From positions 7,551 through 71,550 of the forward strand of contig JAJYDW010000002.1 in NCBI GenBank assembly GCA_021790385.1: a stretch of DNA of 64,000 bases, written 5' to 3'. Every line of letters starts with the position of its first letter. Position 1 is the first letter of the stretch. Of this stretch, positions 6,533 through 19,965 are shown piece after piece. Under the pieces are notes generated by a model. It ran no database searches. It was not told where the DNA came from and was given only the letters and a program-made list of their open reading frames with translations. The position numbers and the translations under genes were made by a program. This DNA comes from Planctomycetota bacterium (GTDB lineage: Bacteria > Planctomycetota > Phycisphaerae > WQYP01).

Positions 6533-6615
6533 CTGGGCGCGGCAGGATTCGAACCTGCGTAGGCATAAGCCAGCGGATTTACAGTCCGCCCCTTTTGGCC
6601 GCTCAGGCACACGCC
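6533..6615 (-). tRNA. tRNA-Tyr (anticodon GTA), long variable arm, no encoded CCA
   Basis: The reverse complement gives GGGCGTGTGCCTGAGCGGCCAAAAGGGGCGGACTGTAAATCCGCTGGCTTATGCCTACGCAGGTTCGAATCCTGCCGCGCCCA. The D-loop and anticodon arm are nearly identical to E. coli tRNA-Tyr (CCCGAGCGGCCAAAGGGAGCAGACTGTAAATCTGC). The 7-bp acceptor stem has one T-G wobble, and the T-loop is TTCGAAT. Confidence 0.9.
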
Positions 6616-6958
6616 CCTGTGGGCCATGAAGTATAACAAAGCTCACCAGAATCGCCAATGACCACACCCTGATTGCCATAAATAGAAATAGAAATCGCCG
6701 CCATTTTCAACCGTAAATGTTGATGACGCCCCCTGCAACACCATGCATCGTGCCATCCATCGTGCGAAAGGTTGACAAAACGGCAGGTGCCCGGGCCGAT
6801 GTTTCACTTCGCCGCGCAAGTTTCGTTGCCGTTCTGGATCTTTACAATACTTTCAGGTGACGGACCACAACAGAATACGTATGCATCAAACGGCTTTAAT
6901 TCCGTTTCTTCCTGTTGACACGTGCAGATTGAGCGTGGCACACTGGCCCGGTATGCGT

Positions 6959-8737
6959 TTAGTCCGAACCCAGTTCCAAATCGTTATCATTGTCATCGGA
7001 ATCGCTCGCGCCCGGTGCCGGCAAGGGCGGGGCAATCAGCCCCAGCGTGGCCAAAATAGACCCATCCAGGAAGCCTTCCAGCTTGCGGGATCGCACCGGG
7101 TGCTGAAGCTTACGAATGGCCTTGGCTTCCACTTGTCGGACTCGCTCCCTGGTCACCTTGAAAATGCGCCCAACTTCTTCCAGGGTATAAGTGTAGCCGT
7201 CGCCAATGCCATAGCGAAGCTTGATGATTTCCCGTTCCCGGTAGGTCAAGGTTTTAAGCACCTGGTCAATCCGATCACGCAACATTTCCTGGGTGGCGGT
7301 CTGCACCGGGTTTTCTGCCGCCTCATCTTCAATAAAATCACCAAAGTAGGAATCTTCGGATTCTCCCACGGGCCGGTCCAGAGAAATCGGATGCCGTGCT
7401 ATTTTCAGAACCCGCCGACATTCAGTCACGGGCATTTTGGCTTCCTTGGAAATTTCCTCAATGGTAGGCTCCCGCCCCAGATCCTGCAGAAGCTTCTTAC
7501 TGATGTTGCGCAACTTGGACATGGTTTCAATCATGTGCACAGGTATACGTATTGTTCGAGCGTGATCGGCAATGGCCCGGGTAATCGCCTGGCGGATCCA
7601 CCAGGTGGCATAAGTGCTGAACTTATAACCCCGGCGGTATTCGTATTTATCCACCGCACGCATCAACCCGGTATTTCCTTCCTGAATGATGTCCAGAAAG
7701 GAAAGCCCGCGGTTGCGGTATTTTTTTGCAATCGACACCACCAGCCGCAGATTTCCGCCGGATAGCTTCCGCTTGGCATCCTCATATTCATTGAATACCA
7801 GTTGAATGGACTGGCAACGCCGCTGCAATGCATCGGCGTCTTCCAGCACCAGATCCATCAGGCCCTGATATTCGTCGGTCATCGCCAGGCGATCATCTTC
7901 AGACAGTTTCAACGATTTGTCATTCAGACGACTTTTAAGGCGGGAGAGTTTCGCACTGATCGACTGGAGTTTTCGCATCAGTGGTATAATTTTGCTGGTG
8001 CGCAGGGATAACTCCTCCAGCAGTGTCACGATCTTGCGGCGGCTGCTTTTCATCCGCACTTCCGCTTCCATCCGGTGCCCGGCGCTGGTGGCCGAATCGG
8101 TGATTTTTTCCCAGTCGTTGCGGTTGCGTTCCAGTATCTTGCGAATGGTGTTGAGATTTTCCGGAATTCGCTTGCTGATAGTGGCCTTGGCATCAACCTC
8201 CGCAGTCGAAATGCGCATGGTCCGATCAAAGGGCAACTCTCCCGATTGCACCAGGGCCAGAATGTCTATGGCACTTTGTACGCAACTGTCGCTCTCCAGC
8301 ACCTTCTTGCGGAAGGTCATCCGCGTGAGTTCAATTTTCTTGGCCAGGCGGATTTCTTCATCCCGGGTCAACAGCGGTATTTCGCCCATCTGAGTCAGGT
8401 ACATTCGTACCGGATCATCAATGCGTTTACTGCCGACCTCCACAATCTCGTCTTCCTTGACGTTTTCAATTTCTTCTTCGGCCTCCCTCATCATGTATTC
8501 GCTGGGATCATCCGGCGATGGAGAGGCAATTTCCTGGGCCACGTCGGCCTCATCCCGAAACTGGATGCCCATCTCATCAAATTGTTGAAATAAGGCATCA
8601 AGACGGTCTGTGGCAATAGCTTCGTCCGGCAGCAGTTCGTTGAGTTCCTCGTATGTAAGGTAGCCCTGCGCCTTGCCCTTGGAAATCAGCAGTGCAATAT
8701 TTGAATTTGCCTTCGCCAGCGGAACGGTGTTGACCAT
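6959..8737 (-). CDS. rpoD: RNA polymerase primary sigma factor (sigma-70)
   Basis: Regions 1.2 through 4 are all recognisable ([94 protein letters not shown]). The ATG start at 8737 gives 592 aa. The ORF extends upstream to a possible TTG at 8788. Confidence 0.9.
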
Positions 8738-9249
8738 TGCTGGAGGCTGTACCTGATCCGTTATTACCGTTGTCACCAAAATCTCCAAATGTACCGTTAT
8801 TAACCTGGACCCGCATCAACTCAACGGTGGCTCTAATCCGGCATCGCACAAATCTCCAGCCGTGGGAATCAACCAACCGCACCGATCAAGTTTTGAAGGC
8901 TCGATCGTCACCTGCGCTTACCCTGGCTGGCATTGACCCCAGATTCTTAATTCCGCACCTGATGGCCCCAACTTTCCAAAGGTCCAAAGGTTCAGACTCT
9001 GCCTCAGCCGACTACGACCAGAAGTCACTTTTCAATAAAAACTGGGAAATCATCTTTCCGGCTAGTTCATGGCTCGGCTGGGCCGCACATCCTCACGACA
9101 CTTCAACGCGCCCGACTGCCACTACGCGCGATTCAAACTATTTTAGCAGGAAAATTTTGCGTGGTCTACCCAGCCAGCTTATGTCAGCCCGGACAATTCA
9201 ACGCAAGTACCATCCATTACATGCACTTACGTCGTTTTTTCACGCGGCA

Positions 9250-11106
9250 TCAATCCGTTTTTTTTCCATCATGGGGCAATATCCGCCGCCGCCGCTCACT
9301 CAACAAGTCACTAAACGATTCCGCCGATATCGCCGCCGCTCCCATATCCAGACCCGCTTCACCATATTCCTTGAGCCGTGCCAAGGATCCGGTTAATTTC
9401 TCCTGTAGATTGCCCCCAAGGGCCGCCTCCCGCTGATATTCAATGGCCATGGCGGCCAGCGGCCCTTCGCCGAGCATGCTGACAAACTCTCCCAGGCTGC
9501 ACTGGCCCAAGTCAACGGCACCCTCTACGTATTCCATTAACTCTGCGGCCAATTTCCGCACCGCACCTTCCGAAAATAATTCCAGGGTGAGCGCGTCGCC
9601 AAGCGGGGCATACAGTGTAAAATCCGTCAATAAGACCCCTATGACCCATTGCTGCGCCCGCATCCGGGCATCCCGTACGGCCGCCCGCTCCAAACCGCCT
9701 GGGGCCGGTTGCCCCTCCAAGACCGCCACTGGAGCCGGCGACGCCTGAGGGGTTGCCGCTGAAATCTTGCTAAGACTCCGGACCACATCATCAGCACTGA
9801 TGCCTATAAGCTCTGAGAGTCGATTGATAAACAGTCCGCGCCGTAAAACATCCATCGTGGTACCATGCATCGCCATCGCTACCATGCGCAGCATGGCCGT
9901 CGCCGCCTGCTGCTTTTGTACCAGCGAATCCGTGGTCCGAAACGCCCCACTCAAAATTTTCCACTGAAATTCCAGGGCTTCCAGCGCATGATCCACCACC
10001 TGTTTAAAGGCCGCTCCGCCATGGCTCATGCAGTAGTCGCAGGGGTCTTTGCTATCCGGCACGCCCGCAATTTTCACCTCGATCGGTTCGCGAATAAACA
10101 CTTCTAAAGCCCGGTCTGCGGCCCTCCTGCCTGCTTCATCGTTATCAAACGTAAGAACCACGGTCTCAATAAAACGCCGCAGCAACCTGGCATGTTCCGC
10201 AGTCAGTGATGTTCCCAAGGTCGCCACCACATTGGTGACACCCGCCTGGTGACACGCAATAACATCCATATACCCTTCAACCACCACGGCAGTTTTGGTG
10301 CGAAGCATCTCCGATCTGGCGGCATCCAGGCCGTACAAAGCTTCACGCTTCATAAATATCGGCGTCTCCGCTGAATTCAGGTACTTCGGCCCCTCCTCCG
10401 TGGGAACACCCGTCATAGCATCAGTTTTCCCAGACACGGCAGCCGGAATCACCCGTCCTCCAAATGCCACCACTCGACCGGTGACATCGCATATTGGAAA
10501 CATGACCCGGTTGCGAAAGACATCAAATACGCTGCCATCCGCACGTGCTTTACCCAAGCCCGCCTTGACCAGTTCTTGCCGGGTATGGCCCTTGCGCGTG
10601 GCCGCATCCGTCAGGTGTGTCCAGCCTTCCGGAGCCAGACCCAGACGAAAATTGTCAATGGTTTCCGGTGTCAAACCGCGGCTTCGCAGATAAGCCATCG
10701 CCGCAGTTCCGCTCCGCGATAACAAGCATTGCCGAAAATGCTCCATCGCCCACTCATTGACTTCGTACAAACGTTGTCGGGGTGTCGCGGTATCGGCACC
10801 TTTGCGCGACGGCAATTCGGGCAGGGTGATGCCCGCCTTGCCGGCCAGATAACGCAATGCTTCTCCCGGTGTCATCTTGTGATAATTCTGCACAAACCGA
10901 AAAACATCCCCCGCACTGGCGCAGACAAAGCAACTGAAAATCTGCTTCTGCGGACTCACATACATCGAAGGTCGCCGGTCATCATGAAATGGGCACAGAC
11001 CTACCAACTCCTTTCCCGCACGCTTGAGCGCTATATGTTCCCCGATAATGTCCTCTATGCGAACTGCTTCACGAACCGTCTGAAATATTACGCTTGAATC
11101 ACTCAT
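9250..11106 (-). CDS. dnaG: DNA primase
   Basis: 618 aa. It has the N-terminal CHC2 zinc finger (GLCPFHDDRRPSMYVSP...FSCFVCASAGDV) and a TOPRIM region (VVVEGYMDVIA, LTFDNDEAGRRAA). It sits immediately upstream of rpoD, the classic dnaG-rpoD arrangement. Confidence 0.9.
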   Translation of the reverse strand: MSDSSVIFQTVREAVRIEDIIGEHIALKRAGKELVGLCPFHDDRRPSMYVSPQKQIFSCFVCASAGDVFRFVQNYHKMTPGEALRYLAGKAGITLPELPSRKGADTATPRQRLYEVNEWAMEHFRQCLLSRSGTAAMAYLRSRGLTPETIDNFRLGLAPEGWTHLTDAATRKGHTRQELVKAGLGKARADGSVFDVFRNRVMFPICDVTGRVVAFGGRVIPAAVSGKTDAMTGVPTEEGPKYLNSAETPIFMKREALYGLDAARSEMLRTKTAVVVEGYMDVIACHQAGVTNVVATLGTSLTAEHARLLRRFIETVVLTFDNDEAGRRAADRALEVFIREPIEVKIAGVPDSKDPCDYCMSHGGAAFKQVVDHALEALEFQWKILSGAFRTTDSLVQKQQAATAMLRMVAMAMHGTTMDVLRRGLFINRLSELIGISADDVVRSLSKISAATPQASPAPVAVLEGQPAPGGLERAAVRDARMRAQQWVIGVLLTDFTLYAPLGDALTLELFSEGAVRKLAAELMEYVEGAVDLGQCSLGEFVSMLGEGPLAAMAIEYQREAALGGNLQEKLTGSLARLKEYGEAGLDMGAAAISAESFSDLLSERRRRILPHDGKKTD

Positions 11107-11282
11107 CGCACACTATCTTACCGGCAAAGACGCAATTAAAAATCTTACCTGTCCGCAAAACGCCGTCCTTAGCCGTATTATAGGACTGTTAAGCACCCTC
11201 TACTCACTCTCGCGACCGCGCTCGAAGCCCAATTCACATACGCTATAATAACCCATCAGGAACGGCCAACGGGAATTTCACC

Positions 11283-11966
11283 ATGACAATTGACACTTTG
11301 CATATCGGAGATCGAGTTTACGCACCTTGGCGTAAAGAACGGCTTTTCCCCGCCAGAGTTACTTTTCTATCCAATGGAACCGCCTATGTTTCCTATGACG
11401 ATGGCGAAACCGATCGACTGCCCAGCCGGAAATTACAACCCTCCAACAAAGTCTTTATCATCGAATCTGTATCCCGCCGCCCCACTGAAAAATTTTGGTC
11501 CGAAGGACGGTTGCTGGGCGAATTTCTCCGGATGATTGGATCACGCGCGTTGTATTCCTTTATCCGCACCAAACTGGAGTTGCGCCATTTCCTCAAACAG
11601 GCCAGGCTTTCCAGTGGCCGACACATTCATCTTTCCATGCACGGTCTGCGCCGCAAGCTGGTTCTGCAACTGGAAGAAGTGGATGTGGATGAAATTATAG
11701 AAATGGCCGGCGATTTAACGGGCAAAATCGTCTTTTCATCGAGTTGTCTCACAGGGCACGATTCGTTCGCCAAAGCCTTTGTCAAGGGCACTAATGCGCA
11801 GGCTTTCATCAGCCCGCGACGCGAAATCCGCTGGGCCGATGCCGCACTGGTAAGCCAACTTTTTTACAAGAAGCTTTTCTGCGATGGTGTAAGTCCCTAC
11901 GTAGCCTACCGGTTTGTGCGAAAAATGTACCCGCAGCACGCCGATCTGAGCTTTTTTAGCAGTTGA
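11283..11966 (+). CDS. Hypothetical two-domain protein: N-terminal Tudor/SH3-like beta-barrel fused to a minimal CHAT/caspase-like (clan CD) domain
   Basis: The N-terminus (IGDRVYAPWRKERLFPARVTFLSNGTAYVSYDDGETDRL) fits the Tudor-knot pattern. The C-terminus has a hydrophobic strand plus HG (RHIHLSMHG), then about 35 aa later a strand plus Cys (KIVFSSSCLTG), followed by AKAFVKGTNAQAFISPRREIRWADAALVSQLFYKKLF. That mirrors the CHAT consensus (..HG.., ..LSAC.T.., ..AFL.AGA..VI.SLW.V.D..A..LM..FY..L). Confidence 0.45.
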   Translation: MTIDTLHIGDRVYAPWRKERLFPARVTFLSNGTAYVSYDDGETDRLPSRKLQPSNKVFIIESVSRRPTEKFWSEGRLLGEFLRMIGSRALYSFIRTKLELRHFLKQARLSSGRHIHLSMHGLRRKLVLQLEEVDVDEIIEMAGDLTGKIVFSSSCLTGHDSFAKAFVKGTNAQAFISPRREIRWADAALVSQLFYKKLFCDGVSPYVAYRFVRKMYPQHADLSFFSS

Positions 11967-12000: not shown

Positions 12001-14115
12001 TCAACCCACATGCTCTATCTGGCACTCCGGCAAAGCCCGCAGAAAAATCTTCCCGTAGTGCTTGGTTGTAATGCGCTTGTCCAGCACTACCACAATACCG
12101 GTGTCGCGGCGCGTACGAATCAGTCGCCCAAAGCCCTGCTTGAATTTGAGAACCGCTTCCGGAACCTGATATTCCATAAAAGGGTTACCGCCTCCAGCTC
12201 GAATGGCCTCTACCCGGGCTTCCACCAACGGCTTATCGGGCACCGCAAAGGGCAATTTGGTGATAATCACATTGGATAGTGCTTCGCCCGGCACATCCAC
12301 CCCCTGCCAAAAGGAATCCGTTCCCAGCAGTACGCTGTTATTCTGCGCACGAAAACGGTCCAAAAGTTGGCCACGGGCCAGCCTGCCATCATGCGTGTGC
12401 ATCGGATAACCCAACGCCTGAAGCTGGGGACGCAAAATAGCCGCAGCCTGATCTATCTGACTGTAACTGGTGAACAAAATAAACGCCCGCCCTTTGCTCA
12501 ATCGAATGTAGTGCATGGCTCTATCCATGGCCCGCGGCAGGAAATCCGGTTCGTCCGGTGTCGGCAAGCCGCTTTCAAGGTAAAGTGTTACCTGTTCTTT
12601 ATAATTAAAGGGTGAACCTAATTGCAGTTCCTGCCCGACCGCCAAACCAATACGCCTGCGAAAAAAGGCAAACGCTCCCCCCAGGTCGGTGGAAACGGCC
12701 GAAGATTGTTTTTCATCCTTGGCGATTGTTCGCCTGCTGGACTTGCCACCAGAGCCGGTCTCCGGTGTGGTCAACGTGGCACTGGTAAGAATCACCGAAC
12801 CTTTCATGGAAAATAGATTAGCCGCCAGATGATCCGATACATCAATGGGACTGGAGCTAAGTGCAATGCGGCGGTGGCCGCGACCGGTGTTTTCGATCCA
12901 GTAAACGCTGTCCGGATGCTCCTGCTCAAGCAAAGTCTCGGCCACGGTGGCCAGGCCGCGGCATCGGTTGGCAAAACTGGTGAGTTCAAAGCGATCGCGC
13001 TGGGCCTCTTGCGCCGGGCCGGCAGGCGGCGCGCCATCCTCAGGGTCATCGGTAACCGGGCCGGCGGCAGCACCCACACGCAAGGCGCATACCGCGGCCA
13101 AAGCGTCCAGATTTTTCCCCAGTGTCACCAACGCCGGAGACAGGCAATTTTCAATGATATTTTTATCACGAACCCGACCATTGTTAGATCCGGAATTTTT
13201 GAGCCACAGCGCCAGCTCATCAAAAAACTGATCCGTTTGTGCCATCGCGCTGTCTACCGCTGCAATAGCGGGTTTCATGTCCATCGCCTTGAGGCTTGCT
13301 AAAAAACCCCTTCCCTGTCGGGATTGGTGCAAACTGCTTAGCAGATAGCGCACCTGGCTTTCTTTGAGAGACAGGCCAAGATGGTCCGCAGCCACGGCTT
13401 CAATGGTGTGCGCCTCATCGAGAATCACAATGTCACAGTTGGGCAACATGGATGAACCTGCTCGACGAAGTGCTAAATCTGAAAAAAACATGGCATGGTT
13501 GCACACCAGTATCTGTCCATGGGCCATACGGCGCCGACTGGCCTGGTAGAAGCAGTGGTCATAAAACTTGCAGCGTTTGCCCAGACAATTACCGTGTTCA
13601 GCGCAGGTTTTATCCCAAACCTGCCATGCGGGCTGACGGGGCAGGTCCGACAGCGATCCGTCGGTGGTATGGGCGGACCAGTCGCGAATCATCTGCAAAT
13701 CTTCAACCTGCCTGGCATCGGCAAAAAGATGAACACTTTTCTGGTGGGCTTGTTCAGTACGACGCTGGCAAAGATAATTGGACCGTCCCTTGCACAGCAC
13801 CGCGGAAAATTCCTCGCCCGTAACAGCCCGCAAAAAGGGTATGTCCTTATCTATCAACTGTTCCTGCAGGCTGATCGTATGAGTAGAAATAAGCACACGG
13901 CGACGGTTTTCAACGACCTCGGCAATGGCGGGCAGCAGATAGGCAAAAGATTTGCCTACACCTGTACCCGCTTCCACAATCAGGTGTTGACGATTTTTGA
14001 AGGCTTCGGCCACAGCCGCGGCCATTTCCACCTGTTGCGGACGTAGTTCAAAGTTACCCATGCGGCGGGCAACAACGCCGCCTGGAGAAAGAAAACTCTT
14101 AACATCAATCGCCAT
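12001..14115 (-). CDS. dinG: ATP-dependent DNA helicase, DinG/Rad3 (XPD-like) family
   Basis: 704 aa. It has a Walker A (AGTGVGKS), a DEAH box (LDEAHTIEA), four Cys for an Fe-S cluster (CKGRSNYLC...C...C) and a typical DinG C-terminus ([13 protein letters not shown]). Confidence 0.85.
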
Positions 14116-15080: not shown

Positions 15081-15470
15081 TTACCGGGTGATGGCAGAAC
15101 GGTGCCCCGTTCCCAGCCAGAGACGAATCACTTGGACCCGGTAGAGCGCGTTGGGCATCAACGGACTTTTCTTGTTACGCAGCAGTTGGCCGAAAATCTC
15201 TACCTGCTGGCCGGGAGAAAATCCGCTCATGCTCCGAGCCGGAGTCAGGATAAGCCGTCCACCGTACGGATCGTTGCTGACCACTCCTGCATAACGCAAG
15301 GTCCAGTGGCCGTGCGATCCTCCGACGTAATTAAGCCGGCCAAAGACAATGCGATAATCCGGACTATGCCAGCCGGGGCGGCCCGCCGGATACGGATTTA
15401 AACTGCCGCACCCGGTCAGGAAAAGAGCCAGGCACAGGCTTGCGGCAATTAGATGGAAGTTGCGGACCAT
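15081..15470 (-). CDS. Hypothetical lipoprotein
   Basis: 129 aa. A signal peptide ends in a lipobox (LFLTGC). No recognisable domain. Confidence 0.5.
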   Translation of the reverse strand: MVRNFHLIAASLCLALFLTGCGSLNPYPAGRPGWHSPDYRIVFGRLNYVGGSHGHWTLRYAGVVSNDPYGGRLILTPARSMSGFSPGQQVEIFGQLLRNKKSPLMPNALYRVQVIRLWLGTGHRSAITR

Positions 15471-18900: not shown

Positions 18901-19965
18901 TCACTTGCCGCTGATCCACCGGGTCATCAACGGCAGCGCCGGCTCACCCTGAAGCGAATAACTCCCGTAATCGCTGGGTTTCCCACCCGGCATCCATTCC
19001 CACAAAAACGCTCCGGCAAAAGTCTTCTTGGGCAGACCATCCCAGGCCATGCCAAACGACTCATAGGCCCGCAATTGTTCATCGGGATCCAACGGTCCGC
19101 TGCCGGTATAATTCCACGGCTCCACGATGGTGTCCTGAAGATTATACCAGCCGATCTCGGTAAGCAGCAGTGGCCGGTGCATTTTCGCGGCAAAAGCCAG
19201 CACCTGTTTTTGAATCGGACGCCAGCGCTGAACCAGAGTGGACACCGTGTGGCCGGGGTGATACGCCAGCCGCCAATACGCATTCATGGCCACATAATTG
19301 AGTTCATGCCAGATCAACACTTGCTTGTAATGGTCCCAATTGGCGCTGTAAATAAGCTTGCCTTTGAATATTTTTCGAGTCATACGGACAATCCGCAGCC
19401 AGCGACCACGAAATTTTTCCGTTGAAAGCAGTTCGCTGCCCACCGAAAAAATGGAACACTTCCCCGCTGCGGCAACGCGGGCGTATGTGCGAATGTACGC
19501 CCGATAGCCGACAAACCATTGGTGCCAGCTTTGGGGTTTAATGGTGCCCCGCCACTGATCGCCCGTGGCATGGTCCAACAGAATAATCGGCATCAGCAGG
19601 GTGTGTATGCCTAGTTGATGGGCATATAACAACAGCCTGGTCATGACCTGAGGTCTGGCCGTGAGATTCCAGTTGAGGTACACGCGGTTGCTGTGTACAT
19701 CTTTTTGCCTTGCATCTACGACAAAATTAATCCATCGGCACCCCAGCTTCTGCAGGTGCTTGACCGAGCGGTAATATTTTTGGATGTTTTTAGGATCATT
19801 GATCTGTATGGCAAAGCCGCGAATCGGCGGCAGGCCTTTCAAGGGCAGAGGTACTACGGCCGACGCAGCAGCCACGTGTTGCCTATGGCGGGTCAGAAGA
19901 ATTCCACCCAGCAGAATTATCGCAATAACCATTCCGGCCAGAAAAGCGAGTTTACTTGTTTTCAC
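18901..19965 (-). CDS. Putative membrane-anchored glycoside hydrolase-like TIM-barrel protein (clan GH-A-like)
   Basis: 354 aa with an N-terminal TM anchor. The candidate catalytic glutamates, in SVGSEL and LLTEIGW, are spaced roughly 110 aa apart as in clan A hydrolases. Family assignment is uncertain. Confidence 0.4.
   Translation of the reverse strand: MKTSKLAFLAGMVIAIILLGGILLTRHRQHVAAASAVVPLPLKGLPPIRGFAIQINDPKNIQKYYRSVKHLQKLGCRWINFVVDARQKDVHSNRVYLNWNLTARPQVMTRLLLYAHQLGIHTLLMPIILLDHATGDQWRGTIKPQSWHQWFVGYRAYIRTYARVAAAGKCSIFSVGSELLSTEKFRGRWLRIVRMTRKIFKGKLIYSANWDHYKQVLIWHELNYVAMNAYWRLAYHPGHTVSTLVQRWRPIQKQVLAFAAKMHRPLLLTEIGWYNLQDTIVEPWNYTGSGPLDPDEQLRAYESFGMAWDGLPKKTFAGAFLWEWMPGGKPSDYGSYSLQGEPALPLMTRWISGK

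Follow-up and report, generated by a model that had tools for sequence, protein, structure and literature searches.

A Tudor-fused minimal CHAT-like domain, probably a cysteine protease, conserved in Phycisphaerales

We analyzed a 64,000-nucleotide stretch of DNA from a Planctomycetota bacterium of the class Phycisphaerae (GenBank assembly GCA_021790385.1, contig JAJYDW010000002.1, positions 7,551 to 71,550; hereafter the window) and focused on a gene for a 227-residue protein (hereafter the query), in which an N-terminal Tudor barrel precedes a small C-terminal domain with a predicted caspase-type fold (hereafter mini-CHAT). We propose that this gene probably encodes a constitutive, cytoplasmic, single-chain cysteine protease of clan CD, CHAT-like and of minimal size, which is targeted by its Tudor domain. 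The gene was singled out in a sequence-only reading of the window, and the list of open reading frames (ORFs) and the sequence bear out exactly the reading frame and the motifs quoted there.

The C-terminal domain retains a complete caspase-type core

An AlphaFold2 model of the protein, computed from a 107-sequence family alignment, reached a predicted local distance difference test score (pLDDT) of 93.7 and a predicted template modeling score (pTM) of 0.86; one computed from seven close sequences alone was mediocre (pLDDT 70). The former model presents the entire caspase-type succession β1-α1-β2-α2-β3-(His)-hairpin-α3-β4-(Cys)-α4-β5-α5-α6-β6 in 172 residues, viz., β1 (56–61), α1 (74–84), β2 (88–93), α2 (97–109), β3 (114–118), a hairpin (125–134), α3 (135–142), β4 (149–152), α4 (160–170), β5 (174–178), α5 (184–200), α6 (205–215), and β6 (222–226). 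Structure comparison recovers the α/β/α sandwich with a caspase-type sheet that marks clan CD, and the order of the elements is likewise that of the clan, with β3 leading to His120-Gly121 and β4 to Cys155. Foldseek matched the model to caspase-7/3 (E ~5e-6), and SAVED-CHAT and Craspase are among its top fold-search matches. The caspase-like sandwich by which the sequence-only reading had proposed to judge its CHAT/caspase-like domain is thus found in the predicted structure, and the assignment is further backed by CHAT matches among family members (see below). The same reading had described the module as extremely reduced. The region preceding the histidine is indeed short (~60 residues), but it corresponds to the bare β1-α1-β2-α2-β3 core, and the model keeps the complete set of six caspase-fold strands, such that there is no loss from the core itself. 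What is absent relative to the Pfam CHAT model is a ~100-residue N-terminal extension, along with any long loops or linker. Going by the model, the domain would rank among the smallest caspase/CHAT-like cysteine-protease domains known.

The proposed catalytic residues are the most strongly retained features of the domain. Across 121 distant relatives with 22–32% identity to the query, His120 is present in all 121 and Cys155 in 120, flanked by a similarly persistent His116 (118/121), Ser153 (115/121), and Gly121 (110/121, with Ala in the remainder). An acidic residue at the end of β1, Glu61, is found in 109 of 110 relatives, and no column of the 107-sequence alignment other than that of His120 is fully invariant. 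The conservation of the His and Cys in homologs, which had been suggested as a check of the assignment, therefore holds. The family consensus reads YLHLSCHG ... RRLFxSAC, and the query itself HIHLSMHG and IVFSSSC; both query motifs conform to the CHAT signatures hLHxxxHG and hhLSAC, for which the SAVED-CHAT protein (PDB 8tl0) has ILHFIGHG and VVLNAC. The latter structure is also the best PDB sequence match of the family profile, though a weak one (E 0.22). In the alignment, the HG and C of the family fall on chain residues 355 and 402; with a 20-residue offset, these correspond to the reported catalytic dyad of SAVED-CHAT, H375 and C422 (bioRxiv 10.1101/2023.06.23.546230). Given the high scores of the model and the invariance or near-invariance of the His and Cys in the 121 distant homologs, both domain calls exceed chance expectation.

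The C-terminal domain defines a large family related to CHAT

An exhaustive HMMER search with a profile of the two-domain orthologs (E ≤ 1e-3) matched 467 cluster representatives, which fall into two separable sets. In the first, residues 4–60 of the query match proteins in which this module is repeated in tandem up to 21 times; in the second, residues ~55–200 match stand-alone proteins of ~200 residues, which account for more than 100 of the best 150 matches. The full architecture of barrel and C-terminal domain recurs in a few distant proteins (P0009, P0028, and P0129 in our labeling). When the query alone was used in a word-indexed search, eight relatives were returned, all of them close orthologs. 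The mini-CHAT domain is not a unique module; it is part of a large family that has no name, is apparently undescribed, and is spread over several phyla. Its stand-alone members show 38–66% identity across phyla, and their source labels include Candidatus Thiodiazotropha, Sedimentisphaerales, and Ignavibacteriae metagenome-assembled genomes (MAGs).

Among the 107 aligned family members, 22 match Pfam CHAT at E ≤ 0.01, with P0069 (31.1 bits) being the only one above the gathering score of 24 and P0028 falling just short of it (22.7 bits). At the same threshold, seven members match DUF6642 and three DUF4347, with no other competitor, and P0159 bears a precomputed PF20347 label; scans of all 107 against NCBIfam and PHROGs gave nothing meaningful. 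Thus, in keeping with the earlier expectation that no unrelated family would claim the domain, CHAT, DUF6642, and DUF4347 are the only families matched. The query shows no match to Pfam CHAT (PF12770) even at E ≤ 10, and its Pfam matches, both sub-threshold, are limited to Tudor_3 (see below) and DUF6642, the latter over residues 114–194 (12.3 bits, E 0.13; gathering score 27); NCBIfam yields no match to it. By the curated Pfam rule, the query family is therefore a sister or divergent relative of CHAT rather than a member.

The N-terminal domain is a Tudor barrel with a predicted aromatic cage

The query scores 13.9 bits against Pfam Tudor_3 over residues 10–50, below the cut-off of 25.8, and a phmmer search of PDB sequences yields weak matches to the second Tudor domain of PHF20. 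The modeled barrel superposes on solved Tudor domains at 1.0–1.5 Å over ~50 residues, and its tandem-repeat relatives score against Pfam Tudor_5, Tudor_3, and Agenet with E-values down to 1e-143. The assignment is thus supported by fold search and by transitive homology to these repeats. The barrel proposed from the sequence is upheld in this regard, but not its classification as a Tudor-knot: it is a canonical Tudor domain.

The cage of PHF20 Tudor-2 is formed by W97, Y103, and F120 (PMC8867114). In the phmmer alignment these residues correspond to W16, F22, and Y38 of the query, and PHF20 D122 pairs with D40; none of the four query residues varies among seven orthologs, giving an aromatic cage as judged from the alignment. 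The equivalent positions in 169 homologous Tudor repeats are likewise aromatic, aromatic, aromatic, and Asp. A small barrel preceding the mini-CHAT domain is a recurrent arrangement, but we saw a Tudor of the cage type in no clade other than that of the close orthologs; the distant barrel-containing relatives, among them P0028 from a planctomycete, lack the aromatic cage.

The closest relatives of the N-terminal Tudor domain, P0010, P0011, and P0013, have 11–21 tandem Tudor repeats and come from short contigs (7.6–23.7 kb) deposited as brown-algal, namely from Laminaria digitata, Sphacelaria rigidula, and Choristocarpus tenellus. Such records might mean that the bacterial Tudor domain is of eukaryotic origin or was transferred, or that the algal assemblies were contaminated with bacterial DNA. 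The genus name Phycisphaera itself refers to algae, and, taken with the deposited source of these nearest relatives, the barrel could conceivably stem from an algal host.

The Tudor fusion is strongly conserved in Phycisphaerales

A scan of species-representative genomes recovered the Tudor fusion at 24 loci in 23 genomes, all of them MAGs of Planctomycetota, Phycisphaerae, Phycisphaerales, with 76–99% identity to the query. The most similar (L018, 99%) is syntenic with the window. One Phycisphaerales MAG (clean1592) has two copies (L025 and L038), both ~80% identical to the query and neither adjoining dnaG. The divergent pairing with dnaG seen in the window occurs at 13 of the 24 loci, and in nine of these the DnaG protein is just 44–51% identical to that of the window. 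Synteny with DinG, PhyH, rpoD, and pyk is confined to the four closest genomes; hence, we rejected a functional link to DinG, whose adjacency had been noted as context. Other orthologs adjoin lpxB, or a fatty-acid desaturase gene and a gene for a PKD-domain protein. In general, the neighbors are housekeeping genes that differ from locus to locus, with neither a conserved partner gene nor a defense island at the ortholog loci; the contexts of the distant barrel–mini-CHAT relatives differ too.

Over 52 genome pairs, the mean identity of the Tudor–mini-CHAT protein is 79.8%, against 46.7% for the adjacent DnaG. The pairwise ratio of nonsynonymous to synonymous substitution rates (dN/dS) comes to 0.038 for the whole protein, and the Tudor, CHAT, and tail segments each give ~0.05, a sign of very strong purifying selection on both domains; with dS being saturated (~1.9), the values are approximate. 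This pattern of conservation indicates a vertically inherited and strongly constrained cellular function.

The upstream region contains a TATAAT element that an alignment shows to be invariant in all 13 dnaG-adjacent loci, 20–35 nucleotides before the start codon, with the rest of the intergenic region diverging. A scan for promoters and terminators gave nothing above shuffled expectation, having missed this element since it lacks a -35 match. The invariant TATAAT is consistent with a promoter of the gene's own. The dnaG start codon is in turn abutted at the 13 dnaG-adjacent loci (window positions 11107–11125, and loci L018–L041) by a conserved (g)ATTnTAcCGG block (as read on the plus strand). 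When the block is read along dnaG, a TAnAAT-like hexamer appears within it, and the dnaG leader might accordingly be very short or absent.

Stand-alone relatives and the case for a defense function

The alternative with the best claim is that the query is a single-gene abortive-infection or defense protease of the Borvo type, in which the Tudor domain would detect a phage protein and unleash the protease, with death or arrest of the cell as the outcome. CHAT proteases serve as defense effectors, among them SAVED-CHAT and Craspase, which are top structural matches of our model, and Borvo is a CHAT-based single-gene system. The PADLOC model for its protein, BovA, is matched by three of the 107 family members, with E-values down to 3e-7. 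Moreover, stand-alone mini-CHAT relatives often lie in mobile or defense-like islands: one (L013, 6001–6600) is near a small RelA_SpoT gene, Mrr, and Type ISP restriction genes; another (L043, 6001–6624) is near genes for a MORC-like HATPase/HD-CE protein, a VWA-NOV_C protein, and a UvrD helicase; and a third (L042, 2935–3585) is in an excisionase/DUF4224 region, where several small genes of unknown function follow one another. Others sit among housekeeping genes, and the neighbors of six stand-alone members share no homologs that would point to a conserved partner. These contexts make a conflict-related role plausible for parts of the mini-CHAT family, not specifically for the Tudor-fused clade.

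For the Tudor fusion itself we consider a defense role unlikely. The query has no PADLOC match and lacks the combination of a BovA match with a defense or mobile context that typifies Borvo, its clade is essentially single-copy in the 23 Phycisphaerae genomes and surrounded by housekeeping genes, and base composition around the gene shows no anomaly. Defense genes are usually patchy and fast-evolving; the far greater conservation of the protein relative to DnaG and its low dN/dS are the opposite of that pattern. A tblastn search of 50,697 phage records found no matches that would point to a phage origin. Given this conservation and the vertical inheritance in Phycisphaerae, regulatory or housekeeping proteolysis is likelier than phage defense, and the role of a defense or signaling effector, which had been implied on the basis of CHAT proteases elsewhere, is not borne out.

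Several observations concern the wider family on mobile elements. The sole good match in BFVD is a 320-residue phage protein (A0A8S5MXG5, Myoviridae sp. ctWaE18; E 1e-12, TMq 0.69 against the model), which superposes with a root-mean-square deviation of 2.2 Å over 183 columns at 20% identity. At least one phage therefore possesses a related mini caspase-fold domain. A plasmid search gave four matches to the family, including distant homologs annotated as hypothetical proteins on the small plasmids NZ_CP130276.1 (Salmonella, 4,020 bp; positions 815–1243) and NZ_AP019659.1 (Vibrio ponticus; 19345–19896), with 23–25% identity and E ~1e-8.

A Tudor-less mini-CHAT protein (P0180, 31% identity) is encoded in Sedimentisphaerales (L014/L015, 6001–6636) two genes upstream of dnaG-rpoD; it and an adjacent 234-residue protein are rich in Lys, Asn, and Ile, and genes for HNH_3/AP2 and GIY-YIG endonucleases lie alongside. 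A 77-residue ORF overlapping this gene was considered as a split-off Tudor domain and rejected, as it is not a Tudor, and we accordingly treat the proximity to dnaG-rpoD as coincidental. The repeated nearness of mini-CHAT genes to dnaG in Phycisphaerae may be coincidence or may mark an insertion hot spot.

Proposed mechanism and its alternatives

On the strength of sequence and model together, the protein would best be placed as a minimal, Tudor-fused form within clan CD that acts like a CHAT protease. In the mechanism we propose, Cys155 would be activated by His120, as in the CHAT-type dyad, and would attack a peptide bond of the target. The Tudor barrel, apparently held rigidly by a short linker (as the pTM suggests), would recruit the substrate or select the site via the conserved pocket of W16, F22, Y38, and D40. 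As there is no long linker after Cys155, maturation would not require caspase-style self-cleavage. The near-invariant acidic Glu61 may, as a weak inference, favor a basic P1 residue.

A more specific version, which is attractive but which we regard as a long shot, is that of a bacterial "reader-protease": the predicted cage would read methylated Lys/Arg or another quaternary-ammonium mark and deliver the marked protein to the mini-CHAT active site. We know of no methylated ligand in Planctomycetota. If true, this would be a prokaryotic case of proteolysis directed by a post-translational mark, with a Tudor domain of eukaryotic type as its building block.

Several points weigh against a Tudor-targeted protease as proposed above. 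The query passes no curated threshold in Pfam, NCBIfam, or PADLOC. We infer the juxtaposition of His120 and Cys155 in the model from topology and in-register alignment only. As the distant barrel-containing relatives lack the cage, cage-dependent targeting cannot be family-wide. The saturation of dS blunts the estimate of constraint, and, given the island settings of many stand-alone relatives, a conflict-related ancestry or a present conflict role of the Tudor-fused gene is possible.

The identity of the reaction offers a further alternative: the Cys/His center might perform non-hydrolytic or non-protein chemistry, either a transpeptidation or ligation reaction like those of legumain-type ligases and GPI transamidase, or one that strips a Tudor-bound target of a small modification (acyl or peptide). 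We hold this to be improbable, as the closest relatives in both sequence and structure are CHAT endopeptidases and nothing in the data is specific to ligation. Least probable is a catalytically dead, partner-binding scaffold comparable to the Raptor N-domain or c-FLIP, as pseudo-enzymes normally lose their catalytic residues, whereas here the dyad and its flanking Gly/Ser motif are kept down to 22–32% identity.

Relationship to known systems and significance

The closest known proteins are the CHAT proteases (PF12770), namely SAVED-CHAT, Csx29/TPR-CHAT of Craspase, DdvA, HetF, and BovA of Borvo. The query differs from them in its size, with a domain of ~172 residues and family matches that span positions ~110–257 of the 289-position profile; in its sensor, which is a 50-residue Tudor barrel in place of TPR, SAVED, or anti-sigma modules; and in its setting, which lacks a CRISPR, CBASS, or sigma-factor partner and a defense island. 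DUF6642 (PF20347) and DUF4347 (PF14252; PDB 9qpe_G, from the Hcp3-Tce1 complex) are small uncharacterized caspase-fold families, for which all scores are below the curated thresholds and neither of whose search results includes a Tudor fusion. Caspases, metacaspases, orthocaspases (Peptidase_C14), gingipains, legumain, and separase show no detectable sequence similarity to the query, which is much smaller and lacks both a prodomain and a p20/p10 processing linker. With the eukaryotic "Royal family" readers (PHF20 Tudor-2, SMN, TDRD3, and ERCC6L2) it shares the barrel and filled cage positions, but its barrel is bacterial, single-copy, and fused to a predicted protease.

Literature searches found no paper on DUF6642 and none joining a CHAT domain, Tudor, and bacteria; to that extent, the suggestion that no Tudor plus mini-CHAT architecture had been described stands. 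With its complete six-strand core and invariant dyad, the domain is of use for understanding the minimal needs of a caspase-type enzyme and for protein engineering. The coupling of a cage-bearing Tudor to a mini-CHAT domain, conserved far above the neighboring primase, suggests a core pathway of regulatory proteolysis in a phylum that has received little study, and it allows the idea of a Tudor domain as a targeting module in bacteria to be tested. It also cautions against annotating CHAT-like domains as defense effectors by default.

Gene coordinates and window context

The features of the gene and its immediate neighbors are collected in Table 1. Its divergent orientation relative to dnaG and convergent orientation relative to the helicase gene, as initially described, are confirmed in the window; rpoD lies past dnaG, and a gene for a PhyH-type dioxygenase past the helicase. 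The window contains no paralog of the Tudor–mini-CHAT protein.

Table 1. Positions of the Tudor–mini-CHAT gene, its elements, and its neighbors in the window
Feature	Position	Strand	Remarks
Tudor + mini-CHAT protein gene, complete	11283..11966	+	ATG start, 227 aa plus stop; read from ORF list and sequence
Tudor barrel, aa 7–52	11301..11438	+	Strands 11–15, 21–30, 33–38, 43–47
Tudor cage-position codons	W16 11328–30, F22 11346–48, Y38 11394–96, D40 11400–02	+	
Minimal caspase-hemoglobinase (CHAT-like) domain, aa 56–227	11448..11963	+	
His120-Gly121 (cac ggt), proposed catalytic His; motif H116-x3-H120-G121	11640..11645	+	His120 codon 11640–11642
Cys155 (tgt), proposed catalytic nucleophile; motif S153-S154-C155	11745..11747	+	
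TATAAT, likely -10 element of the Tudor–mini-CHAT gene, 34 nt before ATG	11244..11249	+	Comparative alignment
dnaG primase, divergent neighbor (context only)	9250..11106	-	Pfam Zn_ribbon_DnaG, DNAG_N, Toprim
DinG/XPD-type helicase gene, convergent neighbor	12001..14115	-	

Two further genes of the window deserve mention. The RpoD-type sigma factor (6959–8788, minus strand; 609 residues) has ~45 residues after region 4, whose Pfam match stops at residue 563, with an acidic tail at the end; its gene is followed by one for tRNA-Tyr (6534–6616, minus strand). Beyond the helicase, a 129-residue ORF (15081–15470, minus strand) without a Pfam match has a hydrophobic N-terminus that leads into a Cys (LFLTGCGS), resembling a lipoprotein signal, and is 78–95% identical across the four syntenic genomes.
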